Shown here piece after piece: positions 1 through 17,247 of a DNA stretch of 28,436 nucleotides; position 1 is the stretch's first letter, and each line of letters opens with the position of its first letter. The stretch is from Acidimicrobiia bacterium (GTDB lineage: Bacteria; Actinomycetota; Acidimicrobiia; Spongiisociales; ZC4RG35). A model generated the notes under the pieces. The model was not told where the DNA came from, did no database searches, and saw only the letters and a program-made list of their open reading frames with translations. The translations under genes and the position numbers were made by a program. The stretch is taken from positions 1 to 28,436 of the forward strand of contig DATHSX010000176.1 of NCBI GenBank assembly GCA_035463935.1, given 5' to 3'.

Positions 1-157
1 CGTTGAACCCGATTCCGGAGTCAAGGAAATCGCGGTAGAAGCGACTAATTGCAGCAAGATCGCGGCCATGACGGAGCGCGCTCCGAGCATTCACTTCTAT
101 CGGCAGCCACGTCCCGGACTGTTGGCCGATCCCGCCCAACACCGCCTCGAAGCGCTC

Positions 158-817
158 TCAGCTCGCGTGACCGACGGAGGTGGGTACCGGTCGCACGAAG
201 TCCCGCCGGAGGCGGTCGATCTCTTCGCGGTATTCGCAGGCGTCGACGTGGTCATTGACCAAGCCCATGGCCTCCATGAACGAGTACACCGTGGTTGGCC
301 CCACAAAGGACCAGGCCCGGCGCTTCAGGTCTTTGCTCATGGCAGCCGCCTGCGGGGGTGGCGGCAGCGCGATCAGGGTGTCCCAATCGAGCCGGTCCGG
401 ACGGGACCGTTCATCAGGCTCAAATGACCAGGCGTAGGCCCCCAGGCTGCCGAACTCGTCGATCAGGTCGAGACACCGGCGGGCGTTGTTGATAGTCGCC
501 TCGACCTTCGCCCGGTTCCTGACGATGCCCCTGTCGCTCATGAGCCGCTCAACGCTGCGAGCGTTGAAGCGGGCGACCTTCTCGATATCAAACGATGCAA
601 AGGCTCGGCGGAAGTTCTCCCTTTTGCGCAGGATGGTGAGCCAACTGAGCCCCGCCTGAAAGCCCTCCAGGCTCAACTTCTCGAAGAGGACCAGGTCGTC
701 GGCGATCGGCCGACCCCACTCGGTGTCGTGATACCGCCGGTAGAGCGCGTCATCCGAACCCCAAGGGCACCGGGCGATGCCATCGTCACCGAACGCCACA
801 CCGCCGCCGGGGACCAT
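158..817 (-). CDS. tag: DNA-3-methyladenine glycosylase I (Tag family)
   Basis: Typical Tag motifs: RCPW, YHDTEWG, LFEKLSLEGFQAGLSWLTIL, GIVRNRAKV, FVGPTTVYSFMEAMGLVNDH (Zn ligands C/H...H/C). ATG at 817. Confidence 0.93.
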   Translation of the reverse strand: MVPGGGVAFGDDGIARCPWGSDDALYRRYHDTEWGRPIADDLVLFEKLSLEGFQAGLSWLTILRKRENFRRAFASFDIEKVARFNARSVERLMSDRGIVRNRAKVEATINNARRCLDLIDEFGSLGAYAWSFEPDERSRPDRLDWDTLIALPPPPQAAAMSKDLKRRAWSFVGPTTVYSFMEAMGLVNDHVDACEYREEIDRLRRDFVRPVPTSVGHAS

Positions 818-1596
818 CGAGCCAGGTTAGACGCCAGCCCCCAACCGCCCGGGCGAGGGTTGAGTGGATCGGTGGCGTTGGCCGCTTGCAGCGTGTAGCG
901 CCTCAGGTTGGCGACGTCACCCTCGGAAAGACGGTCACAAACCCAGTCCCAGTGCAGAGACACCCAGTCGCCCGGCCGAAGGCCGTGGACAAATCCGCGT
1001 CCGTTGAGCGCGACCGTTGCTTCCTCGGTACGCTCGACACCGGGGCGCACGACCCGACCATCGAATTCCAGGGCGCGACTGCGGACCAGGGCCGTTGTCC
1101 CGTTGGCGTGAACCACCCGGCCCCAGCGGATACGGCATCGATCGAGGATCGTCAGCGGCTCGGGTCCCTCATGTCCTGCCCGCAACAGGCCCGCCCACGG
1201 GTACACCGCAAAGACGTGGAAGTTGTGGTGGGGGAGGCCACCGGCCAGGGCGGCACTTCCCACATTGGACCAAAGCCTTCCCGCCCTCCGCTGGAATCCC
1301 TCGGAGAGAAATCCGGTCAACCGGACGGGATCGACCGCCTCCAGCAGGGGATTGCCGACCCAATAGGCGCGGACCACCTTCTCGGCGAGCGGGTCCGATA
1401 CGCGGTTGGCCTCGGCGATGAGACGCAGATAAGGAAACGCACCCTCGAACCGCTGCGCCAGGTCGACCAGGCCGCGATCGGCAAGCCCGGTGCTGCCGTA
1501 CTCGAGGAGGGCTCCCGAATCGGAGGGGCCGCAGTACCCGAGTTCGTTGGGCGGATAGGCGTAGCGGGCAAAGACGAGCGCGCCTGCATTGCTCAT
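673..1596 (-). CDS. DUF6390-type protein (hydrogenase-cluster associated); C-terminal part resembles HypC
   Basis: ATG at 1596 overlaps the EamA stop (ATGA). N-terminus FARYAYPPNELGYCGP, YWVGNPLL, PHHNFHVF, DRCRIRWG and GDWVSLHWDWVC match my recollection of DUF6390. The ORF-track extension to 2286 is a shadow of the EamA gene. The 3' end is uncertain because it overlaps tag by 145 bp. Confidence 0.75.
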   Translation of the reverse strand: MSNAGALVFARYAYPPNELGYCGPSDSGALLEYGSTGLADRGLVDLAQRFEGAFPYLRLIAEANRVSDPLAEKVVRAYWVGNPLLEAVDPVRLTGFLSEGFQRRAGRLWSNVGSAALAGGLPHHNFHVFAVYPWAGLLRAGHEGPEPLTILDRCRIRWGRVVHANGTTALVRSRALEFDGRVVRPGVERTEEATVALNGRGFVHGLRPGDWVSLHWDWVCDRLSEGDVANLRRYTLQAANATDPLNPRPGGWGLASNLARWSPAAVWRSVTMASPGALGVRMTRSTGGITTPSGVGRSPTTWSSSRS

Positions 1597-2534
1597 GAGA
1601 GAGCCCCCAGGCGTGACTGCCGTGCAACCCCGACCGCCACCGCGCACGTTCCAGCCAGGATCAGGGCGAGCCCCGCCCCGTTGGGAAGCACGGGCGCTCC
1701 CTGCAAGGCACCGGCCAGCCCGGCGGTTACCACGGCTCCGAATACCAGAACCGCCGTCACGTCGAGCGCCAACGCCCTGGCCAGGGCGGCGTACCACGTG
1801 CTGACAAAGGCAGCCAGGAGTCCACCGGTGAGCACCACCCAGCCCCATTGCCCGGGGGCGAGGGAGACCATGGTTCCGAGACGTCCGGTCCCCGCCACCA
1901 GCCCCAGCAACAGGACCAGGCCGAAGCCGAGACGACCGGCGCCCACCGTGGCCGATGGGAGCGAGCCGAGAAGACGCTTGGCTATGACGAACTCGATGGC
2001 CCAGAACAGGGTGGCGGCCAGGATCATCAACTCGCCCCCGCCGAACCGGAGGGTGGTCAAATCTCCGGCGAGAGCGACTTGACCCCCGACAAGCAGCAAT
2101 ACGGCTGTCACATGGAACAGAGTCAGACGCTCGCGCAGCACGGGGACGGCCAGCGCCGCTACCCACACCACCAGAGTCTTGTGGATGAAGCCGGCCTGGG
2201 TCGACGAGGCGCGGGCCAGGCCCTCGAAAAACAGTACGAAGGGCACGCTGCCGCCGATCAGGCCGAGTACCGCGAGCTGTCCCCATTGCCGGCGGGTCAG
2301 CCTGGGGGGGGCGGGCCGGCCGGATCGGCGGTGCCCGGCGACGATCACCAGCAGAAGAATCGTGGCGATGGCGTTCTTGGCCGTGGTGAAGACCGTGGCA
2401 TCGTCGAACCCTTTGACGGCATAGCCGTTGACGAACACCGAGACTCCGCTGATGGAAGCAGCCACCAAGGCGAGCACCACTCCCCAGGAACGGGAGTGCG
2501 GGATCTGCCAGCGGGCGACCTGGTAGTGGCTCAC
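1593..2534 (-). CDS. EamA/DMT superfamily transporter (about 10 TM, two repeats)
   Basis: About 10 hydrophobic segments. Motifs GGSVPFVLFFEGL, AGFIHKTLVVWV, LAVPVLRERL. GTG start overlaps the HypC stop (GTGA). Confidence 0.85.
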   Translation of the reverse strand: MSHYQVARWQIPHSRSWGVVLALVAASISGVSVFVNGYAVKGFDDATVFTTAKNAIATILLLVIVAGHRRSGRPAPPRLTRRQWGQLAVLGLIGGSVPFVLFFEGLARASSTQAGFIHKTLVVWVAALAVPVLRERLTLFHVTAVLLLVGGQVALAGDLTTLRFGGGELMILAATLFWAIEFVIAKRLLGSLPSATVGAGRLGFGLVLLLGLVAGTGRLGTMVSLAPGQWGWVVLTGGLLAAFVSTWYAALARALALDVTAVLVFGAVVTAGLAGALQGAPVLPNGAGLALILAGTCAVAVGVARQSRLGALS

Positions 2535-2770
2535 GGGACGGCTCCTTCGATGTCTGTCATCAGTTCAATGATTCGGCCTGCCTCTTGGGGGTCGATCCGT
2601 TGCACCGGTATGCCGGCGTTCAACAGAACCCAATCCCCTACCTGCGCCGGAGTGCCCTGGAAGGCAAGTACTGCGAGTGATACCCGCTGCGACCGGCCCC
2701 GCACATCCACGAAACCGGCGTTCCCGTCAGCATCGACCGCGATGACCCGGCCGGGCCGATTCATGCACAT
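2531..2770 (-). CDS. hypC: HypC/HybG/HupF family hydrogenase maturation chaperone (atypical)
   Basis: 79 aa with N-terminal MC(MNR)PGRV, VDVRG...VSL and QVGDWVLL(N)AG...RID, located in the hydrogenase operon. Confidence 0.85.
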   Translation of the reverse strand: MCMNRPGRVIAVDADGNAGFVDVRGRSQRVSLAVLAFQGTPAQVGDWVLLNAGIPVQRIDPQEAGRIIELMTDIEGAVP

Positions 2771-3231
2771 CCGCGACTCCCCTCCCCGGAGATCTCGGCC
2801 AGGATTTCTTCAGCCACGACTCTCGTCGCGGCGGCGACCTCGGGGGTAAGCCCCCCACCCGCCGCAAAAGTCGCCCCCGTGATCCCCACGACCACGAGAC
2901 GCTCCGGTAGTCGGCCCATCACCCGACCCAATTCCACCGCGTCGCCGAGGCTCAGCGAATGGGAGCTATCGCGTGCGGGACGGTCCGGCAGGGGACTATC
3001 GGTGACGTCGAACCTCTCGACCTTGCCGGGAGGACCTCCCGAACGAACGGCGTCGACCACAAAGGCGGCCTGAAATCCTGCCCAGCTTTCGAGCAGGCCA
3101 CCCGGCTCGCCGTCGTGCTCCAGCACATCGACTCCCGGCTGCGCGGCTCTGGCCACCAACCGGGCCACTTCCAGCCCGGCGGCGTCGTCTGACCGATAGG
3201 GGTTTCCTACCCCTACGACGAGGGTCTTCAT
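2761..3231 (-). CDS. Hydrogenase maturation endopeptidase (HycI/HoxW family)
   Basis: [32 protein letters not shown] motifs. Lies directly after the large subunit with an ATGA overlap. Confidence 0.93.
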
Positions 3232-4532
3232 TCGGGCACCACCTTCAGGTCAAGGAAGTGAGTGGCGCAGGAAATACAAGGGTCGTAGCTGCGGATGGCC
3301 TGCTCGCACTGGTGAGTGAGGGCATGCTGGTCTAGTTCAAGCCGGTCGGTCACGAAGTCCGCCAGATCGGCCTCGATCTGGGCCTGGTTCTGCGAGGTGG
3401 GGGGCACAATCCGGGCATCGGTGATATCACCCTGGTCATCGATCCGGTAGCGGTGGTAGAGGATGCCCCGAGGGGCCTCGGTGCAAGCATGCCCGGTGCC
3501 CGCCCGGGGTTCCACATCCACGAATGGCCGGTCTGGCGGCCGATAGCTGGCGATGATCCGCAAGGCCTGATCGCAGGCGTGCACGATTTCAACCGCCCGC
3601 ACGACGATGCTCTTGAACGGATTGCGCACGACCGGGCCGAATCCCACCCCGGCTGCGGCCTGACGCGCCAGGGGTGTCAGCTGCTCGAAGTTCAGGTTGT
3701 AGCGGGCCAGCGGCCCGGTCAAATAGGCACCCCGGCCACGGATTCGAGCGTGAAGAGCATTGGAATGCGCCACCTGCTCCTCCTCGAAGAACTGATAGAA
3801 ATCGCCTACCGCAATGTCGAGACCACGGTCCGAAACGATCCTCCCCCCCAGAAATGGATACTCGGTAGGGTGTCGAAGAGCGACGAACTCGTAGTCCTGT
3901 TCGAAGTCGGGAAAGTCGAATCCACCGACCAGCGCGACCGTGTCAAGGGCCGCCTGCCGGGCCCATTCGAGGCGATCGGCCAGTGGCTCGAGTTCGGAAC
4001 GGGTCGGGACTCGATAAAAGCCTCCCACCCGCACATTGATAGGGTGGATGGCGCGGCCCCCGATCAGGTTGAGGACGTCATTGCCGACCTTCTTGAGCTG
4101 GAGGCCCTGCTCAACGATCTGTTTGTGGTCGCGAGCCATTTCGATGGCGCTCTCGTAGCCGAGGAAGTCGGGTGCATGGAGCAGGTAGACATGAAGGGCA
4201 TGGCTCTCGATCCACTCCCCGCAATAGAGAAGATGTCTCAGCTCCCGGATGGGTCCCTCGACCGTGACGCCGCACGCATCCTCAATCGCCTGACAGGCAC
4301 TCATCTGATAGGCCACAGGGCAGATTCCGCAGATTCGAGCGGTAATGTCAGGGGGTTCGGTGTACTTCCGCCCTCGCAGGAACGCTTCGAAGAAACGCGG
4401 CGGCTCATAGATGCGGAGTTGGACCTGGGTGACCTTCCCGTCCCGGGTGCGAACGACCATGCCTCCTTCGCCTTCGACCCTGGCAAGGGTGTCCACCCTG
4501 AGGGTGCGGGCACCCGTCGCTTTGTGAGTCAC
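3228..4532 (-). CDS. Group 3b [NiFe]-hydrogenase (sulfhydrogenase-type) large/alpha subunit
   Basis: LARVEGEG N-terminus, L1 motif [11 protein letters not shown]2 motif DPCISCATH followed by a cleavable tail FLDLKVVPE. True start is GTG at 4532 overlapping the delta stop; the ORF-track start at 5042 is an extension. Confidence 0.95.
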
Positions 4533-5311
4533 GGGATTCTCTCGCTTTCCTGCCGAAAGGCCTCGGCGCCGGTGTTGAAGGTCCGATAGATCCGTCGAAG
4601 GTCGGGGGGCCCCATCCCCAGGCCCGCCAACCAGCCGGTCAGCGAGGGAGCATTGGCGGTGTCTGCCGGGCCGAAGCACCCGTAGCATCCTCGGGAGTAG
4701 GTCGGGCAGAGCGCCCCGCAGCCGTTTTGGGTGACGGGGCCCAGGCACGGGGTTCCGTGAGCGACCATCACGCAGACATTTCCCCGGCGCTTGCACTCCA
4801 CACACACGCTGTAGGTAGCAATGTTGGGCCTGCGACGAGCCAGGAAGGCGGACAGCACCTCTAGGAGTTGGTGGCGGTCGATCGGACACCCCCGCAACTC
4901 GAAGTCGACGGGAACGTGATCGGCGATGCCCGTCGAGTTGTCCAGTGTGGAGATGAACTCCGGATGGGCGTAAACCACATCGATGAACTCGCGGACATTC
5001 GCGAAGTTGCGCAACGCCTGAATGCCCCCCGATGTCGCGCACGCTCCGATCGTCACGAGCACCCGGGAACGTCCCCTTACCAGGCGGATCCTTTCCACGT
5101 CGTCTGGGGTGCTGATCGATCCCTCAACCAGCGACACGTCATAAGGGCCTCGTATCACTGCCCGGGAGGCCTCGGGGAAGTAGGCGATCTCCACCTCGTC
5201 GGCGAGCGTGAGCAACTCGTCCTCACAGTCGAGAACGGTGAGCTGACAGCCGTCGCACGAGGAGAACTTCCAGACGGCGAGCTTCGGTTTGGCCCGCCCG
5301 GACTCTGCCAT
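4529..5311 (-). CDS. Group 3b hydrogenase small/delta subunit
   Basis: [43 protein letters not shown]...RGCYGCFGP. No Tat signal. ATG at 5311 in a TGATG overlap with the gamma stop. Confidence 0.93.
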
Positions 5312-6180
5312 CACACCTCCCGAATCGACATCAGGCGTTCCACCCGCTGGTAGGGGAAAACCGGTCCGGCCATGCAAACGAAGTCCGGGCCAAACTGGCA
5401 GTGACCACAGTGACCGATGGCGCACTTCATGTTCCGTTCCATCGACACCCGCACCCGATCTCGCGGGATGCCCCGGTCCAGCAGCGCCCTGGCGGCAAAG
5501 CGGATCATCACCTCGGGCCCACAGATGAAGGCCGTCGCCTCCTCCGGTCGGAAGGCGACGGGGGGAATGAGCTCGGTGACTACCCCTACATGGCCATGCC
5601 AGTCCGGACCGGCGTGGTCGACGGTTACCTCCACCTCCATATCGAGGTGGCTCCGCCACGACCCGATCTCTCTTTGGAAGATCAAGTCCTTCGGCGATCT
5701 GGCACCAATCAGAACCGCCACCTGCCCGAATCGACTTCGCTCGGCCATGATCCGGTAGATGGCGGGGCGAAGGGGCGCCAGCCCGATACCGCCGGCGACC
5801 ACAACCAGATCGTTTCCAGCGGCGGCCTCGACCTGCCAGTCCGAGCCGAAAGGCCCGCGCACTCCGACCACGTCCCCCTCCCGCAACCCGCATAGGGCCC
5901 TGCTCACGGCTCCGACCGACCGGACGGTATGAATCAGCGGGCCTGCGGCTGGATCGCCGCTGATCGAGATCGGGACTTCACCCACGCCGAACGCGTAGAG
6001 CATGTTGAACTGGCCGGGTCGGTACGCCATCGGCGCGCCGTCGACAGGATCGAGGGCGAAGGTGTAGGTGTCGGCGGTTTCGCGCCTCTTCCAGCTCACC
6101 CGGTAGCGAAGGGGAACCATCGGCCGCCCAGGCGCCGGGACGGGTGAGAGGTGAACATCAGCCAGCACGACCGCCGCCAT
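5311..6180 (-). CDS. Group 3b hydrogenase gamma subunit (FAD/NAD(P)-binding, 2Fe-2S)
   Basis: [60 protein letters not shown] motifs. Start position approximate. Confidence 0.93.
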
Positions 6181-6631
6181 ACAGATCGATCAAGCGGAGC
6201 CGCGCCGACTCCAGCCTTTCTACGAGTATCTCCGCAAACCGCTTCATCAACTGGTAACCCAGCCGTGTGTCCTCCTCACACTTGTCCCGTAGACAGGCCC
6301 CGTCCAGAGCCACTACTCCGACTGGTTCCAGGGCGCGGGCATCGAACTGCCACCGATAAGGGGGAAACAGCCACGAGGCTCCGACGACGTCGGCTTCACC
6401 GGCAGTGTCGATCACCAGCGAGCCCCGGGCGGGCAGATGCACCTCAATGGCCACCCGGCCCCGACGAACGATGAAGAAGAGGTCGGCCGGATCCCCCTCC
6501 CGACACAGATAGTCACCCGTTTCGAAGACCATGTTCTTTCCGCATCCGGCGACCAGTTCCAGGTAACCGGGATCGAGGTCTTTGAAGAACGGATGGGTCC
6601 GAAGCAACTGGTCGATCGTTTCAAGGGACAT
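6158..6631 (-). CDS. Stand-alone cyclic-nucleotide-binding (Crp-type sensor) domain protein without an HTH
   Basis: [39 protein letters not shown]. 157 aa. AAGGAGG RBS before the ATG at 6631. Confidence 0.85.
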
Positions 6632-7757
6632 TGGCAACCTCCTTGCTGGAGCGGGATGGGGCCCGGAGGCCCTCGACCTCCTCGGTGAGATCAATGCCTA
6701 CCGGGCACCAGGTGATACACCGGCCACAACCCACACAGCCCGAAGTGCCGAACTGATCGATCCAGGTTGCGAGCTTGTGGGTGAGCCACTGCCGGTATCG
6801 CGACCTGGTGGAGGAGCGGACGTTGCCTCCGCCCAGGTATGAGAACTCGAGGCTGAAGCAAGAATCCCAGGTCCGCCACCGCTCGGCGATCGTCCCGGTG
6901 AGATCGCTGGTGTCCTCGACCGTGCTGCAAAAGCACGTGGGGCACACCATCGTGCAGTTGGCGCAGGTCAGACAGCGCCGGGCCACCTCATCCCAACGCG
7001 AGTGCTCGTAGCTGCCGTAGAAGAGGTCTTTGATCCCCCCGGTGTCCAGAGCCCTGCCCATGTGGGCCGCAGCCCATTCGATCACAGCATCCGCTCTTCT
7101 CCGATCCTCCGGCTGGTCGGGCCGCTGCGGCACCTCGGCCAGAATCTCCCCGCCCCGGGGCGAGCCGATCTCCACCAGGAATTCGTGCCGGTTGTCGCTC
7201 ATCAGTTCGGTGAGGGAAAGGTCGAATCCCGGCCCGGCCCGGGGTCCGGTTCCCATGGAGACGCAAAAACAGGTGCCGGCCGGGCTCCCGCAATTGACGG
7301 CGATCACAAATGCCCGCTGGCGGCTGCTGGAGTAGGTGGGGTCCGCGAACGACCCACCGGCAAAGACCAGGTCCTGAATCGCGATGGCCGCCAGCTCACA
7401 TCCCCTTACTCCAAGGAAGGCATACGGCCCCGACGCTTCTGGTCCGGCCTCGATCCCGAATCCTTCCTCTGTGCGACGACCCCGCCACAGCAGCGTTCGA
7501 GAAGGGAACAGGTACTTCTTCCACGATTGGGGACCGACGCCGTACCCGAACAGGGCCTGGTCACTCCTGGGCCGGAGCCGGTAGGTCCCCCCGTCCTGCT
7601 CATCGGTCCATCCTTTGGGGAGATCGACCACCGAGGTGACCTGGTCGTAGACGATTGCGCCCTCGCGAACCGTCGGGCCGACGACCAGATAGCCGCGTTG
7701 GCGGAGCACGCCGATGAGGGTGTCCAGCCCGGATCGGTCGATTACGGCGGTGCGCAT
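6621..7757 (-). CDS. Group 3b hydrogenase beta subunit (4Fe-4S dicluster, AsrA/HydB-like)
   Basis: GVRGCEL, VNC...[45 protein letters not shown]. Confidence 0.93.
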
Positions 7758-7766
7758 TACTTCCGT

Positions 7767-9155: not shown

Positions 9156-9185
9156 CTTCTGGCTCCTTCTGACGCTCCAGGTGAC

Positions 9186-9231
9186 ATCGTGTCCGGGAGG
9201 CTGCGAACGGCCCAGGGCCGATGGTCCCACC
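9186..9231 (-). promoter_or_regulatory. Candidate DosR/DevR-like box (GGTGGGACCATCGGCCCTGG, 9231-9212) with a possible -10 (CACGAT, 9191-9186)
   Basis: Core GGGAC-N4-GNCCC matches the mycobacterial DevR box. It is centred about 42 nt upstream of the start site implied by the weak -10, in front of the tpl-hydrogenase unit. Confidence 0.5.
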
Positions 9232-9236
9232 GGCTC

Positions 9237-9251
9237 TGATCGAACCGATCA
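9237..9251. promoter_or_regulatory. Perfect inverted repeat TGATCG-AAC-CGATCA, possible operator
   Basis: 6-3-6 palindrome in the tpl upstream region, about 22 bp from the DosR-like box. Confidence 0.3.
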
Positions 9252-9319
9252 TCGCTTCGGGAGGTGATCAAAGGCGACAACCACACCGCCGCCGGTGCCG
9301 CCGGGCGGCCCGGGCCGAA

Positions 9320-9362
9320 CCCCCTCGGTCGGCTCCGCGCAACAGCCCAACCGATCGGGGGG
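9320..9362 (-). terminator. GC-rich hairpin after the 127-aa ORF, possible intrinsic terminator
   Basis: Imperfect stem of about 13 bp (CCCCCTCGGTCGG / CCGATCGGGGGG) starting 9 nt after the stop at 9371. No clear U-tract. Confidence 0.35.
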
Positions 9363-9370
9363 ATTCTCGA

Positions 9371-9754
9371 CTAATCGGTGCTGGGCACCGCCCGGGGCGC
9401 CGGCGCTCGCGAAGGGGTGTGGTCGCTCACCGAGCGATGCAGCCGGAACGTCTCCTCGGCCGAGCGGGATTCATCCACAAAGGAAAGGTACTGCCTCGCC
9501 AGTTCGGTGAACTCCCCCCCGGTGCTGGTGGCGGCGTCGCGGAAGTTGAAGCTGAGAGGATGACCGTAGCGCCAGATCTGATGGAAATCACCGCCTCTGC
9601 CGCCGGGAGCCCAAACGGGGGTGTAGGTCCCGAGGTATTCGTAGTTCGGCGGAGCGGCCCGCGCCAGGTCATCCTCGTGGTCCGCCAGCCACCTCCGGAA
9701 CTCATCCTCTTTGCCCGGTTCGACGAAGAATCCCCATTCGTAGATAAGCGCCAC
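9371..9754 (-). CDS. Hypothetical protein (127 aa), possibly a dimeric alpha+beta barrel
   Basis: Strong RBS AAGGAGG 5' of the GTG. Pattern F.V.PGKEDEFRRW...YLGTY....W resembles ABM/NIPSNAP-like barrels. Last gene after the Mo-enzyme. Confidence 0.7.
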   Translation of the reverse strand: MALIYEWGFFVEPGKEDEFRRWLADHEDDLARAAPPNYEYLGTYTPVWAPGGRGGDFHQIWRYGHPLSFNFRDAATSTGGEFTELARQYLSFVDESRSAEETFRLHRSVSDHTPSRAPAPRAVPSTD

Positions 9755-9801
9755 TGCTCCTCCTTGCCGCCCACCCTACCCAGCTAGCGAGCCCGTGCCG
9801 C

Positions 9802-12660
9802 TTAGCCGGGCAGGGCGTAAACCGGGCGAGCGGGCTTCAGCGGGCGCAGCAACCAGTAGGGCCTTCTGGTGCCGTCGGGGGAGATGCGGTCGGCGGCCCT
9901 CGTCAAGTCCAGCCAGCGCAGGTAAGCCTCTCTGGCGCGGGCGGTGTCGACGACGACGTCGCCATATTGGTCGCCTGGCTCGGCCTTGCGCACCCGCACC
10001 GCCTGGTGCCAGCAGTGCTGGCCGGAAATAGGATCGGGCTGCACCGGAAAGGTCAGGTTCTGGTGGACCCCTGACTCCGACCACCAGATCCGTTGGGTGT
10101 CGGGATCGGTCGACTCATAGGGCTCGATCCCCTGCTTGCGGCTCAGGCTCCACTCGGACCCGGAGTGGCCGAGGGCGACCGTGGCCATCGCCTGTCGCTG
10201 CCCTTGATCCTGGAGTTTCCAGCGTCCCATGTGGTGGGAGCACGCCACCACCCCCGGTCGGATGCCCTCGGTTACCCAGGCCTTGACCACGTAGTGACCG
10301 ATCTCGGTCACCACCCGCACCAGGTCGCCGGTGGAAAGGCCGAGCCGGGCCGCGTCGGTCGTGTGAATCCAGAGCGGGTTGGTGTGGGCAATCTCATCTA
10401 GCCATTTGGAATTGGCCGACCGAGTGTGAATCTGCACCGGTAGTCGAAAGGTGGAGATGAGCGGCATCTGTCCCTCCTCGAGGTTCGAGGGGTGAATGTG
10501 GCTGCGGATGTAGCCGGGAAGCGAGTGCTCGGGCCATCCCCAGTTGGTCAGGGTGGACGAGTAGAACTCCAGCTTGCCGCTCGGAGTCGGAAAGCCACGG
10601 AGGACCTTTCCGTCGATCCGCACCCCCACCGGGCGCCTCCCCTGGTCATCGGGGTCGGGGCTCGACAACGGCACAACATTGGCTTGTTCGGCGGCCGGAC
10701 CCCGGCTGTAGACCCGTCCAAACCGATCCTCGGCCACATCCACCAACTCCGCCTCCGGCACCTCCTGTTCGTGCCGGGGGCCGATACCTCTGGCTATCTC
10801 GAAGGCGCCGTAACGACGCATGTACTCGAGCGGGCTCAGACCTTCGGCACCGGCGTGTTCGGGAAGGCCCGGAACCGAGTGCTCAAACATCCAGCCGTAG
10901 TACTCGTCCACTGTCAGCTTGCGACCGGGGTCTTGCCTCGACTCGTGGTATCGCCTGATGCCGAGGCTCCCGTCGGGATCGATCCTCCAGGACAACTCGA
11001 TCCAGAATTCGTTCTCCTCCCACACCTGGCCCGGATTGGACTCTCTGGTGTCGGTGATCGCCATCCCCAACCGGCTGGCCGCCGCCCGCGCCACGGGCTG
11101 ACGGAAACCCACCCACTGCCCGTCGTACTGCTCGTAGGAGTGCACGTCGTGCCTTTCGGGCGAGTGACCCATGGGGAGGATGTAGTCGGCGAAAAAGGCC
11201 GTCTCCGACCAGGTAGGGGTGAGGGCAACATGAAGACCGATCTTGTCCTCATCGGTGAGCATCTCGATCCAGGAGAAGCCGTCCGGGTTGGTCCACACCG
11301 GGTTGTAGACCCGAGTGAAATAGACCTCGATGTTGCCCCGTCCCTCGTTCACGAACTGCGGCAGCAGAAAGGACAACTCGTGCATCGCCAGCGGATACTC
11401 GAGGGGCCAGGTGAGTTCGTTCCATACCGGCGGATGGGGAGGGCTGTGGATGGGTCGGGGCACGAACTTGTTCCAGGCGTTGGGGTACGTGCCGCCGGGG
11501 GTCGCCACCGCCCCCAGGAGGGCGTTGATCAGGAACAAGCTGCGCGATACCTGCCAGCCCCCCAGATTCCCGGCCGCGGCTGAGCGCCAGTTGTGGGACG
11601 AGAAACGGGTTCCGGCGCCGGCCACCAACCCGGCGACTTCCCGGAGGGTCGAGACCGCAACCCCCGACTCGGCCGAGGCAAACTCGAAGGTGTAGTCGCG
11701 GTAGAGCTCACTGAGAACCTCCTCGAAACTTTCGAAGGTGGAGCCCCGCTCGGGATGTTCTGCTGCCAGGTACGACTCCCAGTTCCACCAGCGCCGGACG
11801 AATTCGCGGTTGTAGGCCCCGGTCTGGATGACGTGATTGGCGATGGCCAGATTGATCGCGGCCTCTGATCCCGGATAGGGCGAAAGCCAGTGGTCGGCAT
11901 GGGTGGCGGTATTGGACAACCTCGTGTCGAGGACAATCAGCTTCGCTCCCCGGGCCTTGGCTTCAGTGATCCGCTGGGCGTGGGGGTTGAAATAGTGCCC
12001 GGCCTCGAGGTGGGCCGAGATCAGGTATATCACCTCGGCGTTGGCGTGGTCCGGGCTGGGGCGGTCGATCCCCATCCACAACTGGTACCCCACCCGGGCC
12101 GCCGAGGAGCAGACATTGGTGTGCGAGTTGTGGCCATCGACACCCCAAGAGGCCAGGACCCGCTCGGTGAAACCGTCCTCCCCGGGCCTGCCCACGTGGT
12201 ACATGACCTGGTTCGGTCTCCCCTCGACGATGGCGCTTCGCACCCGGGCAGCGACTTCGGTGAGGGCCTCTTCCCAGGAGACCGGTACCCATCGCCCTTC
12301 GCCCCGGCGACCGGCCCGTTTGAGTGGCTGCAGTATCCGGTCGGGATCGGTGATCTGGTTGAGGGTGGCCGGGCCTTTGGCGCAGTTGCGACCGCGTGAG
12401 CCGGGATGCTCCGGATTTCCCTCCAGCTTGCGGATCTGCAGGGTTTCGGGATCCACATAGGCCAGCAGCCCACAGGCGGACTCGCAGTTGAAGCAGGTGG
12501 TAGGGACCAGCATCGACCGGCGTTCGACCCGCTCCGGCCAGGCCCGGGAGTCCAATTCGGTCCACTCGTCCCATCGTTCCTTCGGCGGGTAAGAGGCCAG
12601 GTGGATGCCGCTGGGGCCCTGGTAGAAGGTCTCGTCAGGACGAGCGGGGTCGTCTGTCAT
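9802..12660 (-). CDS. Mo/W-bisPGD (DMSO reductase family) catalytic subunit, PsrA/PhsA-like, no Tat signal
   Basis: 4Fe-4S motif TCFNCESAC...NCAKG, RILQPLKR, HNSHTNVCSS (candidate Cys ligand), HFNPH, FADYILP, TPSGKLEF, HTRSAN, C-terminal QAVRVRKA. 952 aa from the ATG at 12660 (ATGA overlap); the ORF-track start at 13455 is an extension. Confidence 0.92.
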   Translation of the reverse strand: MTDDPARPDETFYQGPSGIHLASYPPKERWDEWTELDSRAWPERVERRSMLVPTTCFNCESACGLLAYVDPETLQIRKLEGNPEHPGSRGRNCAKGPATLNQITDPDRILQPLKRAGRRGEGRWVPVSWEEALTEVAARVRSAIVEGRPNQVMYHVGRPGEDGFTERVLASWGVDGHNSHTNVCSSAARVGYQLWMGIDRPSPDHANAEVIYLISAHLEAGHYFNPHAQRITEAKARGAKLIVLDTRLSNTATHADHWLSPYPGSEAAINLAIANHVIQTGAYNREFVRRWWNWESYLAAEHPERGSTFESFEEVLSELYRDYTFEFASAESGVAVSTLREVAGLVAGAGTRFSSHNWRSAAAGNLGGWQVSRSLFLINALLGAVATPGGTYPNAWNKFVPRPIHSPPHPPVWNELTWPLEYPLAMHELSFLLPQFVNEGRGNIEVYFTRVYNPVWTNPDGFSWIEMLTDEDKIGLHVALTPTWSETAFFADYILPMGHSPERHDVHSYEQYDGQWVGFRQPVARAAASRLGMAITDTRESNPGQVWEENEFWIELSWRIDPDGSLGIRRYHESRQDPGRKLTVDEYYGWMFEHSVPGLPEHAGAEGLSPLEYMRRYGAFEIARGIGPRHEQEVPEAELVDVAEDRFGRVYSRGPAAEQANVVPLSSPDPDDQGRRPVGVRIDGKVLRGFPTPSGKLEFYSSTLTNWGWPEHSLPGYIRSHIHPSNLEEGQMPLISTFRLPVQIHTRSANSKWLDEIAHTNPLWIHTTDAARLGLSTGDLVRVVTEIGHYVVKAWVTEGIRPGVVACSHHMGRWKLQDQGQRQAMATVALGHSGSEWSLSRKQGIEPYESTDPDTQRIWWSESGVHQNLTFPVQPDPISGQHCWHQAVRVRKAEPGDQYGDVVVDTARAREAYLRWLDLTRAADRISPDGTRRPYWLLRPLKPARPVYALPG

Positions 12661-14213
12661 GCCAGTGGTACGGCCTGCGCCGATTGGATGTATGCGTGCT
12701 CGTAAGCCAGCAGCCCGGCCAGAGCCGGTAGCGCCGCCCAGGCCCCGGCCCAGGGGCCGGCCAGCCCGAAGGCCGAGAGGATGACACCCGGCCAGAAGGA
12801 CGAGCTGTAGCGGCCGGTGGTCATCTCCCACACCGCCAGATGGGCGTGGGCGGTCCCGTGGGGCAGGGTGACCTCGCCCCAAACCAGGAGGAGGTGGACC
12901 AGCGAAGCCAGGGCCAGCGTCCAGCCCAGGGCCGGACCGGCCTCGTTGCCGGTGAGGGCGTCGGCCACGACCAGGGTGGCGGCGCCGGCCAGCACCGCCT
13001 GCATCGCCATGTGGGGCGGAAGCAGCGGACTCTGCCAGAGATCCCTGGCCTTGGATTGGGCGAACAGATAGGCGGTGTACACCGCCGACATCAGGGCAAG
13101 AGGGATGCCGGGCACCGCCGCCAGTTGGCGCAAGGTCTCCGATCCGGTCCAGGCGGAGAGCAGGTGCGCGACCAGCACGCCACCGTAGCCGAGGATGAAC
13201 ATCGCCCCCTTCACCAGCCAGCTCCTCCACTGCGGTCGGGTGAATAGATAGAAGAAGCGCTCGGGATGATCGAGGTCCCAGACCAGGACCGCCCCCGTGA
13301 CACCGAGGAAACCCAAGCCGACCAGGGGGGTGACCCAGACCACCAGGTCGCTGGTCCAATCGAGTAACCCGGTGAGCACCAGCAGCAGCCCAACCAGATA
13401 GACACCGGCACCAATTGCCTTGGCCCAGGTGTAGAGGCCGACCCGCCAGTCCCACGGCGCCTTATGGGGAATGTCATAAGAGAGAAGGGCCGCCGCCGAG
13501 GAGTTGGAGCGGCCCCCGGGATGGCCGGACCGAATCCCCGCACCCTGCTCGCTCCACATGTAAAGGTCGCCGCCAGGACGGGTAGCTGCAATGGGATCGA
13601 GAGTCGCCTGATGGGCTCCCTGGTAGAAGAGCTTGGGATAGGTCTCCTTCTCGGGACGCCTCACCGTCACCGGCTGGCGTTGCACGATCCCTGCCACTCG
13701 CGAGAACGGATCGGACAGATCGCCCACCAGAATCGCCTCGGTGGGGCATACCACCACGCAGGCTGGTTCCAGCCCGATGTCGAGCCGGTGGGCGCAGAAG
13801 TTGCACTTCTCGGCGGAATGATCCTCCGGGTTGATGAAGATGGCATCGTACGGACAGGCCGCGATGCACGCCTTGCAGCCGATGCAGATCCGCTTGTCGA
13901 AATCGACGATCCCGTCTGCGCGCCGATACATCGCGGCTGTGGGGCAGGCGGCCACACAGGGCGGGTTGGCACACTGATTGCACCTCGTCACCTGGAAAGC
14001 CCGACGGGCCTGGGGGAAGTAACCAACGTCGACCGACTTGACGTAGGTGCGGGTCACCCCGACCGGAACCTGGTTCTCCGACTTACAGGCGGTGGTGCAG
14101 GCGTGACACCCGATGCAGCGGGTCTGATCGATGACCTTCACCCATTCCGGCGGTCTGAGCGGGGCAAACGCCGCCGGGGCCGCTTCGAATTGGGAGGTGC
14201 CAGCGACCTCCAT
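12657..14213 (-). CDS. Fusion of a four-cluster ferredoxin (PsrB/NrfC/DmsB-like) to an NrfD/PsrC-type membrane anchor
   Basis: N-terminal half: CIGCHACTTAC, CNQCANPPCVAACP, CIGCKACIAACPY, KCNFC...PACVVVCP. C-terminal half: about 8 TM helices with WDLDHPERF and SWLVKG (NrfD motifs). Confidence 0.9.
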   Translation of the reverse strand: MEVAGTSQFEAAPAAFAPLRPPEWVKVIDQTRCIGCHACTTACKSENQVPVGVTRTYVKSVDVGYFPQARRAFQVTRCNQCANPPCVAACPTAAMYRRADGIVDFDKRICIGCKACIAACPYDAIFINPEDHSAEKCNFCAHRLDIGLEPACVVVCPTEAILVGDLSDPFSRVAGIVQRQPVTVRRPEKETYPKLFYQGAHQATLDPIAATRPGGDLYMWSEQGAGIRSGHPGGRSNSSAAALLSYDIPHKAPWDWRVGLYTWAKAIGAGVYLVGLLLVLTGLLDWTSDLVVWVTPLVGLGFLGVTGAVLVWDLDHPERFFYLFTRPQWRSWLVKGAMFILGYGGVLVAHLLSAWTGSETLRQLAAVPGIPLALMSAVYTAYLFAQSKARDLWQSPLLPPHMAMQAVLAGAATLVVADALTGNEAGPALGWTLALASLVHLLLVWGEVTLPHGTAHAHLAVWEMTTGRYSSSFWPGVILSAFGLAGPWAGAWAALPALAGLLAYEHAYIQSAQAVPLA

Positions 14214-14216
14214 CAA

Positions 14217-14441
14217 CTAGACCTTCTGAATGCGGAAGTGGAACTCGCCATCCTGTTCAAACTGCTCCTTCAGCACGTGGCCCATGTCCGCGGTCCACGC
14301 GGGTACGTCGGTGCACGACCCGCGATCGGTGGAAATCAACTCCACCATAAGTCCCGAAGGGGCGAGGTTGATGGCTTGGCTCAACTTGATGATTGGCATG
14401 GGGCATTGCAGGCCCCGGGCGTCGACGATTACGTCCGCCAT
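14217..14441 (-). CDS. TusA/SirA-family sulfur carrier
   Basis: VDARGLQCPMPII (CPxP motif), STDRGSCTDVPAW. 74 aa, GAGGAGG RBS. Confidence 0.92.
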   Translation of the reverse strand: MADVIVDARGLQCPMPIIKLSQAINLAPSGLMVELISTDRGSCTDVPAWTADMGHVLKEQFEQDGEFHFRIQKV

Positions 14442-14452
14442 GGGCAACCTCC

Positions 14453-14989
14453 TCAGATGAACAAGTTGATCGACGACTGCTTCATCAGGCTGATGGCGGC
14501 CCCCGCCCCGGCCGGCTTGTCAAGGCCATCGATCATATCTTGTGCCTCCATTCCCATCAGGGTCATGGTCATCTGGCAGGGCCAGAGCTTGACGCCCATC
14601 TGCTGGGCGAGTTCGAGCAGCTCCTGAACCGAGGCGACCTTGTGTTTGTCGGCCAGGTCTTTCATCATCCGGGGCCCCATCCCCGCGAAGTTCAGTTTGG
14701 AGAGGTTTAGGTGCTCGGTAGTGCCGCGGTTGAAGATCGAGAGCAGCTTCTGGCGCCAGTCGTCTCCAGTGATGCCCGCGTCGGGCTTCTTGAGGATGCC
14801 GAGACCCCAGAAGGTGAAGAACACGGTCACCTCCATCCCGTATGCCGCCCCGGTGGTGGCCAGGATCAACACCGGCCAGGCCTTGTCGAGGTCACCAGAA
14901 GCGGCGATGATCACCATCTTCTCCCGCTCGGGCTGAGTCTCTTCGACTGCACTCTCGTCCGGGACTGCTGCGAGATTCGTTCTTGTCAC
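14453..14989 (-). CDS. DsrE/DsrF-like (DsrE2/YrkE-type) sulfur-transfer protein
   Basis: SGDLDKAW..LILA..AA..GMEVTVFFTFWGL, LNFAGMG..MM, VKLWPCQMTM.LMG, terminal LFI. AGGAGG RBS. Confidence 0.9.
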   Translation of the reverse strand: MTRTNLAAVPDESAVEETQPEREKMVIIAASGDLDKAWPVLILATTGAAYGMEVTVFFTFWGLGILKKPDAGITGDDWRQKLLSIFNRGTTEHLNLSKLNFAGMGPRMMKDLADKHKVASVQELLELAQQMGVKLWPCQMTMTLMGMEAQDMIDGLDKPAGAGAAISLMKQSSINLFI

Positions 14990-15015
14990 CTGTCCTCCTA
15001 CCGTCGACCGCAGGC

Positions 15016-15041
15016 ACTATATACAGATATTCGTATATACT
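15016..15041. promoter_or_regulatory. AT-rich palindrome TATATAC-N8-GTATATA (15018-15039) overlapping divergent -10 hexamers
   Basis: 7-bp perfect arms in an AT-rich patch within GC-rich DNA. Minus-strand TATAGT (15021-15016) lies about 27 nt before the dsrE start; plus-strand TATACT at 15036-15041. Confidence 0.6.
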
Positions 15042-15188
15042 AATCTCTTCGTCAAAGTGGGCGCAGGTGCCCTCGATGCGATCGATAGAGCAGCGACCGT
15101 CCGGCCCCATCCCTGGCTGCGGCCAGGACTGGGGCGGCGGCTGATCGTGAGCTGGGCGCTCTCGGCGCGACCGGAGGAAGGAGGGGCC

Positions 15189-16544
15189 GTGGAGGTAAGA
15201 CTGCTTCGAACCCCCGGGCTCGGTGACAACAGCTATGTGCTGGCCGAGGACGGGCTGGGCATCGTGATTGATCCCCAGCGCGACATCGACCGGTTCATGA
15301 CCGAGGCCGAGGCCCTGGAGGTGGAGGTCAGGTATGTCCTCGAGACCCACCTCCACAACGACTACCTTTCGGGAGGTCGTGAGCTAGCCCGCCTCACCGG
15401 GGCCGACCTGGTCCTCCCAGCCGGCGCCGGGGCGGCCTTTGCTTACGTTCCCGCCTTCCACCTCGAAGAGTTCGGCGAGGGACGGCTCCGCATCCGACCC
15501 CTGCATACTCCGGGCCACACCCCCGAACACACCTCGTATCTCGTGAGCATCGACGGCGTCCCCATTGCCGTCTTTTCCGGTGGCAGCCTGCTCGTGGGTG
15601 CGGCGGGAAGGAGCGACCTGCTGGGTCCCGACCGAGCGACCCAGTTGGCGCGACTTCAATACGGATCTGTGCGTCGTCTGGCGGATCTCCCCGATCGGGT
15701 TTCCCTTTATCCGACCCATGGGGCAGGCTCGTTTTGCAGCGCCGGACTGGCCGGCCCCGCGACCTCCACCATCGGAGACGAAAAACGGACCAGCCCGGTG
15801 CTCCGGCACCTCGACGCCGACCAATTCGTCGCCGCCCAGCTGGCAAGCCTCGATCCCTATCCCCGGTACTACGCCCATATGGGGCCAGCCAACCTCTTCG
15901 GTCCGACCCCCATGCCCTCCGGGACCGCTCCAAGCCTGAGCGCAGATGACGTCGAGTCGCTGGTAGGCCGGGTCGAGATAGTCGATGCCCGGCCCAAGCA
16001 GGCGTACGCCGACGGGCATCTCCCGAAGGCCTGGGGCATCGAGCTCAACGAAGACTTCGTCACCTGGGTGGGCTGGCTGCTCCCCTACGACGCGCCTCTG
16101 GTGTTGGTGGTGGACAACGATCAAGACGTCGGCCAGGCAGTCACCGCACTCGCCCGAATCGGATTCGACCATGTGAAAGGGGTCTTCTCCGGTATGGACG
16201 AATGGCTCGCGTCGGGTCGGCCAGTCGTCTCCCACACCACGATCACGGCCCGTGGCTTCCTGGAGGGCGCCGATCCCGACCCCCAGGTACTGGACGTCCG
16301 CTCAGCCCGCGAATGGAGTGACGGCCATCTCGAAGGATCCGTGCACTGCTACCTGCCCGACCTCCTGGATGCAACTCCGATCGAACTCGACCCGGGACGT
16401 CCGGTCTACGTGGGCTGCACCACCGGGCACCGGGCCTCTACTGCTGCCGGCCTCCTTGCCGGTAGGGGCTACCGGCCCGTCGTTATGGTGGGTGCCAGCC
16501 TCCTGGGAGTCCTCATGCTTCGCCAGCAGCGAGCCACTGTGTGA
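15189..16544 (+). CDS. MBL-fold hydrolase plus tandem rhodanese domains (persulfide dioxygenase/CstB/YrkH-like)
   Basis: GDNSY, IDPQRD, ETHLHNDYLSG, HTPGHTPEH, FSGGSLLVGAAGRSDL, YPTHGAGSFC. A Cys-less rhodanese domain is followed by one with GCTTGHRAS (active Cys). GTG at 15189 after a GGAGG RBS. Confidence 0.9.
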   Translation: MEVRLLRTPGLGDNSYVLAEDGLGIVIDPQRDIDRFMTEAEALEVEVRYVLETHLHNDYLSGGRELARLTGADLVLPAGAGAAFAYVPAFHLEEFGEGRLRIRPLHTPGHTPEHTSYLVSIDGVPIAVFSGGSLLVGAAGRSDLLGPDRATQLARLQYGSVRRLADLPDRVSLYPTHGAGSFCSAGLAGPATSTIGDEKRTSPVLRHLDADQFVAAQLASLDPYPRYYAHMGPANLFGPTPMPSGTAPSLSADDVESLVGRVEIVDARPKQAYADGHLPKAWGIELNEDFVTWVGWLLPYDAPLVLVVDNDQDVGQAVTALARIGFDHVKGVFSGMDEWLASGRPVVSHTTITARGFLEGADPDPQVLDVRSAREWSDGHLEGSVHCYLPDLLDATPIELDPGRPVYVGCTTGHRASTAAGLLAGRGYRPVVMVGASLLGVLMLRQQRATV

Positions 16545-16909
16545 TGCTTCGATCGCTCTTTCCTTCCGACCCGCGCCGGACCGGGCATGAGCCCGACTAT
16601 CGCTTCTCGTTCGCCAATGAGCGGACGTTCCTTGCCTGGATTCGGACCTCGCTGGCCTTGACCGCCGGCGGGCTGGGAGTAGTGCAGTTGCTGCCCCCGT
16701 TCGCCGGCCGGGACCTGCTCGGAGGCCTGCTTATCGTGCTCGGGTTCTTGACGGCGGCCACCTCCTACCGGAGGTGGGCATCCAATGAACGGGCCTTACG
16801 ATCCGACGCGCCTCTCCCGGCTTCGCGGCTGCCACGAATCCTGGCAGCCGGCGTGGCGCTGGTCGGGCTGGCAGCAGCCTTCTTCCTCCTGATCGACCGC
16901 ATCCGATGA
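16544..16909 (+). CDS. DUF202/YidH family membrane protein
   Basis: EPDYRFSFANERTFLAWIRTSLAL signature and 3 TM helices. Start overlaps the MBL stop (TGATG). Confidence 0.88.
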   Translation: MLRSLFPSDPRRTGHEPDYRFSFANERTFLAWIRTSLALTAGGLGVVQLLPPFAGRDLLGGLLIVLGFLTAATSYRRWASNERALRSDAPLPASRLPRILAAGVALVGLAAAFFLLIDRIR

Positions 16910-17247
16910 CATCGCGCCCCGACCGGGTTTTCGATCCCGCAGTCCAGCATGAACGCACCGCCCTGGCCTGGGAGAGGACGGGGGTCGCTCTCATGGTGGG
17001 AGGGGGTCTGTTGCTCAAACACGCCATCGACTCCACCACCACCTGGGCCGAGGTCCTCGGTCTCCTTGTGGGCGCCACCGGGGCGGGCATTCTGCTCTGG
17101 TCTTCTCACCGCTACGAATCCCTGCACGGAGTTCTTCGCTCCGACTCGGATGTCACTCACCCGTCCATGCTTCGGGCGGTGGCCCTAGTCACGGTGGCGG
17201 TATCGGCCGGAGCGTTGCTGCTGCTGATCGTGCGGGCCGCCGGTTAA
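16906..17247 (+). CDS. DUF202 family membrane protein (second paralog)
   Basis: DPAVQHERTALAWERTGVAL signature and 3 TM helices. ATGA overlap. Confidence 0.85.
   Translation: MTSRPDRVFDPAVQHERTALAWERTGVALMVGGGLLLKHAIDSTTTWAEVLGLLVGATGAGILLWSSHRYESLHGVLRSDSDVTHPSMLRAVALVTVAVSAGALLLLIVRAAG

Follow-up and report, generated by a model that had tools for sequence, protein, structure and literature searches.

The 28.4-kb contig DATHSX010000176.1 (hereafter, the window) is one whole contig, C176, of an Acidimicrobiia metagenome-assembled genome (MAG) of 2.67 Mb, which comprises 533 contigs and is 86.75% complete with 3.28% contamination. In this stretch of DNA, a sulfur operon built around a two-gene molybdoenzyme lies next to an operon in which the gene for tyrosine phenol-lyase (TPL, tpl) precedes those for a group 3b-type [NiFe] hydrogenase (Hyh, hyh). 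On balance, we favor reading the two halves as independent modules with a lineage-specific insertion of TPL, the sulfur module (9802-17247) being a cst-like detoxification unit with quinone-linked sulfite oxidation. The sulfur half is a genuine, portable unit that recurs far outside the class. It is a member of a known but uncharacterized kind, and its enzyme is very widespread and unnamed.

Composition of the Sulfur Module

The genes of the window were identified by open reading frame (ORF) listing combined with Pfam and NCBIfam searches. All the genes named in an earlier sequence-only reading of this DNA (the original prediction) were found, on the strands and in the order described there. 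The tight packing that it had noted was also borne out, with gaps of 0, 5, and 9 bp, overlaps of 4 bp and of 1–23 bp, and a 47-bp gap between the catalytic subunit of the molybdoenzyme (Mo subunit) and a small downstream ORF.

The sulfur operon is encoded on the minus strand. Its first gene, dsrE2 (14453..14989), specifies a DsrE2-family sulfur carrier (DrsE_2; PF13686, 1.4e-47) that scores 92.7 bits against NF047629, under the cut-off of 210, and that has an 87% identical orthologue in the same position in locus L005. After 5 bp comes the sulfur carrier TusA (14217..14447, minus strand; PF01206, 2.8e-21), in whose translation the Cys-Pro-X-Pro motif is read as CPMP. With no intervening base, tusA is followed by a gene for a 519-aa protein (12657..14216, minus strand; Fer4_11 and NrfD), in which a four-cluster ferredoxin resembling PsrB/SoeB is fused to an NrfD/PsrC-type quinone-site anchor (hereafter, FeS/NrfD). 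This gene overlaps by 4 bp that of the 952-aa Mo-bisPGD catalytic subunit (9802..12660, minus strand; Pfam Molybdop_Fe4S4, Molybdopterin, and Molydop_binding). The small ORF behind it, orf127 (9371..9754, minus strand), is possibly NIPSNAP/Dabb-like. It has no Pfam or NCBIfam match, and its atlas clusters are all hypothetical, with NIPSNAP at 0.91. It lies outside the conserved module, as it is next to the Mo enzyme in 0/80 of the loci surveyed below.

On the plus strand, a metallo-β-lactamase (MBL)-rhodanese gene (15189..16544; Pfam Lactamase_B and two Rhodanese domains) encodes a CstB-type persulfide dioxygenase-sulfurtransferase. The protein aligns over its full length with the structures 3tp9 (E 1.7e-61) and 3r2u (E 1.7e-51), and BpPRF and ETHE1 were matched too. 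It has the CstB-type arrangement of an MBL/persulfide dioxygenase (PDO) domain followed by two rhodanese domains, and the C-terminal catalytic Cys loop is kept as CTTGHR. The start codon is most likely at 15189 and probably not at 15057, because a GGAGG stretch lies 7 nt upstream and the homology to 3tp9 begins there. Two co-directional genes for small DUF202 (YidH-like) membrane proteins follow (16541..17247, plus strand; Pfam DUF202), and this pair also adjoins the sulfur module in L003, L005, L016, and on plasmid pRHL3 of Rhodococcus jostii RHA1. MBL-rhodanese had been described as divergent from dsrE2 across one palindrome. Indeed, the 199-bp divergent region holds the AT-rich palindrome TATATAC-N8-GTATATA (15019..15040), a candidate operator.

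Occurrence and Neighbors of the Molybdoenzyme

Screening one genome per species gave 595 relatives of the Mo subunit. For the best 80 of these 595, all at least 70% identical, the flanking DNA, up to 10 kb to either side, was searched by tblastn with all 21 window proteins. The 80 loci cover at least seven phyla (Actinomycetota, Acidobacteriota, Gemmatimonadota, Chloroflexota, Binatia, Dormibacterota, and Myxococcota). The FeS/NrfD fusion is adjacent to the Mo subunit in 74/80 loci, where a full-length match precedes the Mo gene, and most of the six loci with no match are ended by a contig edge. In every locus whose gene calls or annotation we consulted (L001, L003, L085, L086, Thermomicrobium roseum, and RHA1), FeS and NrfD form one protein.

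The link between homologues of the Mo enzyme and sulfur genes, which the original prediction had expected, was recovered in this survey. MBL-rhodanese was found in 31/80 loci, DsrE2 in 24/80, and TusA in 21/80; at least one of the three was present in 38/80 and all three together in 17/80. When all ORFs were clustered independently, 41 of 83 loci (the window and 81 public ones) had MBL-rhodanese and 28 had DsrE2. For a rough comparison, one of 20 hydrogenase loci of like size has MBL-rhodanese (Fisher p = 0.003, the loci including kin that are not independent). Also recurrent near the Mo enzyme are TauE exporters, class-V aminotransferases (cysteine-desulfurase-like), LysR regulators, Usp proteins, and parts of ABC transporters (TOBE_2-domain ATPase, SBP_bac_11 binding protein, and permease). 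The conserved core is the two-gene enzyme, and the CstB-type dioxygenase, the sulfur carriers, and thiol-based regulators are its frequent companions across phyla.

Named and distant organisms carry the module in several forms. Loci L005, L008, and L009 have the same sulfur operon as the window. On plasmid pRHL3 of R. jostii RHA1 (RHA1_RS43835-43870), the divergent architecture is identical, with MBL-DUF202-DUF202-ArsR opposite DsrE-TusA-FeS/NrfD-Mo, and the Mo subunit is 56% identical to that of the window. Unlike in the window, Mrp/NBP35 comes after the Mo subunit, further MBL and thioredoxin genes are present, and neither hydrogenase nor TPL is nearby. Our literature search found no paper on this cluster. 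As it has the same layout as the window, the RHA1 copy makes the function directly testable in a genetically tractable organism. On the megaplasmid of T. roseum, a CsoR-family regulator stands immediately ahead of FeS/NrfD-Mo. In a Myxococcota contig with a 46% identical Mo subunit, a sigma-54 activator, MBL-rhodanese, and two Sulf_transp genes accompany FeS/NrfD and Mo. Haloarchaeal plasmids have the two-gene enzyme followed by Mrp/NBP35, and other loci have the two enzyme genes alone or with a NarJ/TorD-type chaperone.

The gene behind the Mo subunit thus varies. It is the FeS-cluster carrier Mrp/NBP35 in RHA1 (L099, 11832-13001) and Natrinema (L101, 9915-11075), and a NarJ/TorD-type chaperone in an Actinomycetota contig (L001, 12910-13806). 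The window has only orf127 and neither helper. This variation suggests alternative maturation helpers for a cytoplasmic enzyme.

Family and Orientation of the Enzyme

The Mo subunit falls in the Psr/Phs/Arr corner of the DMSO-reductase superfamily, judging from sequence comparison. Its best solved relatives are ArrA (6cz7) and Thermus PsrA (2vpw), both at E ~1e-35. The N-terminal FS0 motif is present as CFNCESAC...C, and the Cys of an NVCSS stretch aligns with the Mo-ligand Cys of ArrA and PsrA, so that the Mo-bisPGD type with FS0 cluster and Cys ligand of the Psr/Phs enzymes is preserved. The best NCBIfam model is PhsA (NF012032), with 186.1 bits (cut-off, 694); a plasmid-borne PhsA is 24.9% identical across 52% of the length. 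No NCBIfam model for SoeA matched the Mo subunit. In a library clustered at 50%, the family is tight: the next full-length relatives stand at 58%, at 46–48%, and then at 37% or lower. Its closest homologues come from Acidimicrobiia MAGs. The enzyme has no KO or equivalog name, and IMG labels family members only COG0243, whereas a Psr/Phs relative receives its KO name.

Neither the Mo nor the FeS protein has a twin-arginine (Tat) or Sec leader, their N-termini lacking an RR pair followed by a hydrophobic region; the twin-arginine leader and periplasmic catalytic dimer of the Psr/Phs enzymes are therefore absent. With the FeS domain placed inside, the anchor has 7 Lys and Arg residues in the predicted inside loops against 1 outside. 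From this positive-inside count and the leader-less N-termini, the FeS domain and the Mo enzyme are predicted to face the cytoplasm, and the orientation put forward in the original prediction is upheld.

An arsenic role of the Mo subunit was considered and rejected. It might be suspected from the top PDB match, ArrA, and from ArsR and ArsM genes nearby. The ArrA model, however, gives 112.7 bits, where the cut-off is 1600, and 0/80 loci have ArsM near the enzyme. Plasmid-borne candidates for a canonical SoeA (Azoarcus KH32C, Sulfurovum, Thioclava, and Ralstonia) belong to other families, being B-C-A-TorD operons or 712- or 758-aa enzymes. Among them, plasmid pAZKH of Azoarcus sp. KH32C (L100, 4257-12570) carries a different molybdoenzyme operon of the B-C-A-TorD order, Tat-less in appearance and with a 33% identical Mo subunit; genes for a PhnD/SsuA-type binding protein and for a sigma-54 two-component system lie ahead of this operon.

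Linkage of the Two Halves

The original prediction had combined both halves into one cytoplasmic system that collects sulfane sulfur and either oxidizes it when O2 is present or uses it as an electron sink linked to quinone and NAD(P)H/H2. The link to H2 would run through the adjacent group 3b hydrogenase, and the part of TPL would be to provide or process sulfur substrates. Such a system presupposes that the junction is real. A chimera of two organisms, made during assembly or binning, might be suspected in a MAG so fragmented, of the completeness and contamination given above, but it is scarcely credible. An independent soil-metagenome contig (X3; 1150 nt, ~98.7% identical) bridges 8771-9918, from TPL through the intergenic gap and orf127 to the 3′ end of the Mo gene. 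Depth is level over 1-19000 in Logan contigs of three independent soil studies, and GC is uniform across the window (0.61–0.69). Given the spanning contig and the even depth, the TPL/orf127 junction is not an assembly artifact. DNA near-identical to the window was found in the soil metagenomes of ten studies and in one groundwater metagenome.

A junction that is real in an independent assembly is one point in favor of a single island. The genes are also co-directional and tightly packed, and the 215-bp gap that separates the halves (9156..9370), present as the original prediction had it, contains no clear terminator: neither a consensus promoter nor a consensus terminator was found in it, and its folding is no better than that of shuffled sequences (z -0.06). 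Co-occurrence of Hyh and the Mo enzyme in genomes is modest and above chance (naive odds ratio 2.9, not phylogeny-corrected), one genome of the class, G094, has TPL 4 kb from Hyh, and archaeal group 3b enzymes reduce polysulfide in vitro.

The comparative evidence nevertheless makes the single system highly improbable. In the neighborhood test that the original prediction had itself proposed, no hydrogenase subunit, TPL, orf127, cyclic-nucleotide (cNMP)-binding protein, or DUF6390 was found within 10 kb of the Mo enzyme in any of the 80 loci. From the other side, we took a sample of 301 genomes of the class, 57 of which have HyhL, and retrieved 18 kb around 20 of these. TPL, the Mo enzyme, FeS/NrfD, TusA, and DsrE2 occur in 0/20 of these hydrogenase loci, and MBL-rhodanese in one. 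The combination of Mo module, hydrogenase, and TPL was thus not seen to recur elsewhere.

In the same sample, the Mo subunit is present in 45/301 genomes and both it and HyhL in 16. The two modules are adjacent only in the window's genome; in the 15 others they are on separate contigs or, in G158, 33 kb apart. The closest well-assembled relative, the nine-contig genome G186 of the same family (TPL 87% and Mo 80% identical), has a separate contig for each of Hyh, the Mo enzyme, and TPL. Moreover, the candidate operator ahead of dsrE2 is not repeated before tpl-hyh, nor did a search of the window and the genome find a further copy, and nothing in the sequence appears to point to shared control of the two halves. 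Because the linkage is absent from all 80 Mo loci and all 20 hydrogenase loci, because the modules are not adjacent in the 15 other genomes, and because the operator is not repeated, the linkage is specific to this lineage, a coincidence of local gene order or, at the most, an arrangement peculiar to the lineage.

Proposed Function of the Sulfur Module

In the mechanism that we propose, the CstB-type MBL-rhodanese would oxidize low-molecular-weight persulfides with O2 to sulfite or thiosulfate, while DsrE2 and TusA would carry sulfane sulfur within the cytoplasm. FeS/NrfD and the Tat-less Mo enzyme, at the inner face of the membrane, would then oxidize the resulting sulfite to sulfate, and the electrons would pass through the FeS clusters to menaquinone. 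This last step would complete the oxidation and clear a toxic product. On the quinone-linked oxidation of sulfite to sulfate by the Mo enzyme itself, for which gene context and thermodynamics speak, we are about evenly divided.

CstB and the PDO-rhodanese fusions are known to turn low-molecular-weight persulfides and O2 into sulfite and thiosulfate. By textbook potentials, sulfite oxidation to menaquinone is ~440 mV downhill, and the reduction of sulfane sulfur by menaquinol is uphill. An oxidative role is favored because the conserved partner of the enzyme is an O2-dependent CstB-type persulfide dioxygenase, because SoeABC offers a precedent and PSRLC3 has been inferred to be a sulfite oxidizer (see below), and because TauE-type exporters and persulfide-type regulators are among the neighbors. 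With the O2-dependent partner, the exporters, the regulators, and the potentials taken together, an oxidative role like that of Soe is more likely than the Psr-like electron sink of the original prediction.

The reductive alternative would make the Mo enzyme a cytoplasm-facing polysulfide, persulfide, or thiosulfate reductase that takes electrons from menaquinol and releases H2S when O2 is lacking. The nearest solved structures (ArrA and Thermus PsrA, E ~1e-35), the best NCBIfam match (PhsA), the Cys ligand shared with Psr, and the presence of the persulfide carriers TusA and DsrE2 within the operon are all consistent with it. We nevertheless consider it unlikely. The PhsA score is 186 against a cut-off of 694, and the 25% identity to the plasmid PhsA extends over half the length; with no Tat signal, the pmf-assisted periplasmic mechanism of Psr/Phs is unavailable; the conserved partner requires O2; and the reaction from menaquinol is uphill by the same potentials. 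In addition, the carriers of the family belong mostly to soil lineages (Pyrinomonadaceae, Gemmatimonadales, Rhodococcus, and T. roseum) that we take to be mainly aerobic.

Sulfane sulfur bound to TusA/DsrE2 could also be the direct substrate. The Mo enzyme would then oxidize it to thiosulfonate or sulfite as an O2-independent, quinone-linked "sulfane dehydrogenase" acting in parallel to the CstB route. Gene order lends itself to this, as dsrE2 and tusA lie 0 to 5 bp from the enzyme genes in the window, on pRHL3 of RHA1, and in L005, and immediately upstream of the enzyme in L008 and L009. The three sulfur genes accompany the enzyme in 17/80 loci, and the module has no rDsr or sHdr to take the sulfur from TusA. 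However, most loci, including those of T. roseum, the haloarchaea, and L001, are carrier-less, which argues for a free small-molecule substrate, and we know of no precedent in the DMSO-reductase superfamily for the oxidation of carrier-bound sulfane sulfur. We therefore regard this alternative as quite unlikely.

Several observations weigh against two independent modules with sulfite oxidation as we propose them. No sulfur gene was found within 10 kb in 42/80 loci. The position of dsrE2-tusA directly before the enzyme genes, unneeded for free sulfite, hints at a carrier-bound substrate. The genome encodes several sulfite-oxidase-family proteins, so that the need for a separate sulfite dehydrogenase in the cytoplasm is not evident. 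The 16 genomes with both Hyh and the Mo enzyme compare with 8.5 expected, by the same naive estimate uncorrected for phylogeny. Finally, since no terminator is evident in the 215-bp gap, read-through from the sulfur operon into tpl-hyh is conceivable and may occur in the window's species; one sequencing run, guessed to be RNA, gave a few 150–290-nt pieces from both halves, too little to address co-transcription. Joined together, some of these points would describe a Mo enzyme that oxidizes carrier-bound sulfane sulfur independently of O2 and that is coupled, by read-through into tpl-hyh, to NAD(P)H/H2 balance under hypoxia, a combination that we hold to be very unlikely.

Relation to Known Systems

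For the sulfite oxidation that we favor, the nearest parallel is the sulfite:quinone oxidoreductase SoeABC, the only characterized NrfD-anchored molybdoenzyme described as facing the N-side (PMC8076601). The comparison with SoeABC (Allochromatium vinosum, Aquifex aeolicus) was made by description and not by sequence. In both systems, catalytic and FeS parts with no Tat signal stand on an NrfD-type anchor and face the cytoplasm, as predicted in the window, and SoeABC works downstream of cytoplasmic sulfur-carrier and oxidation steps, as proposed here for the window enzyme. They differ in that the FeS and anchor parts of the window form one polypeptide and the gene order is BC-A instead of A-B-C, so that the three separate subunits of SoeABC are not found. 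Similarly, PSRLC3 of green sulfur bacteria is a Psr-like enzyme that was inferred to be a sulfite-oxidizing system (PMC6338057, PMC9324843). This likeness, too, is by description and not by sequence and goes as far as the cited descriptions do; in these, PSRLC3 belongs to a dsr-based sulfur oxidizer and does not stand beside a CstB-type dioxygenase.

PsrABC/PhsABC share with the window enzyme the superfamily, the FS0 cluster, the Cys Mo-ligand, the four-cluster ferredoxin, and the NrfD/PsrC anchor. They are, however, periplasmic Tat substrates of three separate subunits and are reductive, whereas the window enzyme has its B and C parts fused and is Tat-less. The cst operon of Staphylococcus aureus (CstR, CstA, CstB, SQR, and TauE) is a further known system close to the module. 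The window has, like it, a CstB-type enzyme of an MBL and two rhodanese domains (3r2u) and TusA-type carriers, and cst-like TauE and regulators of the CsoR/CstR or ArsR type occur in relatives of the window module. Unlike the cst operon, the window has no SQR and no CstR, and a membrane molybdoenzyme is added.

The sulfur half matters more than the sulfur/H2 "island", which is a species-specific juxtaposition and holds little interest beyond this case. At least seven phyla, represented mostly by soil and sediment bacteria, share the two-gene molybdoenzyme at 70% identity or higher, and haloarchaea have it too, as do plasmids of the cultured strains R. jostii RHA1 and T. roseum. Should it prove to be a sulfite:quinone oxidoreductase, sulfite oxidation would be undercounted in marker-gene surveys. 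On a KEGG basis, SoeC ranges over Proteobacteria, Clostridia, and Aquificae (PMC8076601). As this leaves out the phyla carrying the family, Actinobacteria and Chloroflexi among them, standard annotation misses it as Soe. A Bohai Sea study, for example, reported SoeABC as undetected (PMC12345210), while six Gemmatimonadota MAGs whose isolate names start with the Bohai station codes M3, M8, and BHB10 (L026, L027, L046, L062, L074, and L080) carry the Mo enzyme; the family is thus invisible to KO-based sulfur-cycle surveys.

Hydrogenase Unit and TPL

The second half of the window is also encoded on the minus strand and begins with TPL (7767-9155). Its score against TIGR02618 passes the equivalog cut-off only marginally (724.6 against 720.7 bits), and the tryptophanase models fall below their own cut-offs. 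HyhB (6621-7757) follows after 9 bp, and the genes of the hydrogenase unit overlap by 1–23 bp. A gene absent from the original prediction lies between HyhB and HyhG. It encodes a 157-aa cyclic-nucleotide-binding protein (6158-6631, minus strand) with that domain only and overlaps HyhB by 11 bp and HyhG by 23 bp. HyhG (5311-6180), HyhS (4529-5311), and HyhL (3228-4532; RICGIC and DPCISC motifs) come next on the minus strand. They are followed on the same strand by four genes identified by Pfam, namely a maturation protease (2761-3231), HypC (2531-2770), an EamA transporter (1593-2534), and DUF6390 (673-1596), after which Tag is listed, also on the minus strand.

The alpha, delta, beta, and gamma subunits, the NiFe CxxC pairs, and the FAD/NAD(P) gamma subunit of a group 3b enzyme are all present. 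The best NCBIfam models are those of the sulfhydrogenase Shy/Hyd alpha, beta, gamma, and delta subunits (ShyA-D, HydA-D), with all scores under the equivalog cut-offs. Like the Hyh of Mycobacterium smegmatis and the sulfhydrogenase of Pyrococcus furiosus, the window enzyme has four subunits with AsrA/AsrB-like diaphorase parts. It differs from these in scoring far under the archaeal equivalog cut-offs and in the cNMP-binding protein between beta and gamma. By analogy with the M. smegmatis Hyh, its role is probably redox balancing and H2 turnover.

The order HyhB, cNMP-binding protein, HyhG, HyhS, HyhL was found in 20/20 of the Acidimicrobiia hydrogenase loci, which suggests that the cNMP-binding protein is a conserved regulatory or accessory subunit. 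We read the hydrogenase module (673-7757) as the usual NAD(P)-coupled group 3b operon of the Acidimicrobiia, with a cNMP-binding protein and maturation genes of its own. The protease is present in 19/20 loci. DUF6390 and EamA, present in 13/20, form a conserved accessory pair that is placed downstream, as in the window, or divergently upstream.

TPL orthologues at least 73% identical were found in ~27 genomes of the class, 16 of which also have Hyh, and TPL is near Hyh only in G094. There (G094:C47:3120-9704), HyhL is followed, 4 kb downstream and on its own strand, by a 78% identical TPL orthologue, in an arrangement other than that of the window. Because the arrangements differ, the proximity of TPL and hydrogenase would have arisen or persisted at least twice. 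In the window, TPL appears to have been added in front of the hydrogenase unit in this lineage.

Candidate Regulatory Elements

The palindrome TATATAC-N8-GTATATA occurs as a sole exact copy in the 2.67-Mb genome, and allowing up to three mismatches adds one poor match. The exact motif is absent in relatives, in which loose AGATAT/ATATTCG-like elements lie upstream of related ArsR or dsrE2 genes. L005, L008, L009, and RHA1 have a different ArsR-type regulator with two Cys (VCK...E[IL]C pattern) inside the module. In the window's genome, a second TusA-DsrE2 pair (C47:1261-3259) is accompanied by a two-Cys ArsR-type regulator that is 74.5% identical to the module regulator of L005, and a second MBL-rhodanese, 40% identical, stands beside another ArsR (C103:183-1858). 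These two loci are candidate trans-regulators or paralogous sulfur modules. The C47 regulator is the strongest candidate for acting in trans on the palindrome.

In RHA1 pRHL3 (L099), two ATATACCCCCATGGGTATAT-type palindromes resembling a CsoR/CstR operator flank the module on both sides (3740 and 13645). One precedes an MBL gene by ~50 bp and the other an FHA-domain gene by ~10 bp. Just beyond the DUF202 pair of the window, an ArsR with the arsenic-type CxC site EMCACDL (17294-17626) is divergent from an ArsM-like S-adenosylmethionine (SAM) methyltransferase (pair 17294-18478). This ArsR probably belongs with the ArsM-like gene; the two probably serve arsenic methylation and have no relation to the sulfur genes. 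Finally, a candidate DosR-like box, GGGAC-CATC-GGCCC, is found on the minus strand of the gap upstream of tpl (9186-9231).

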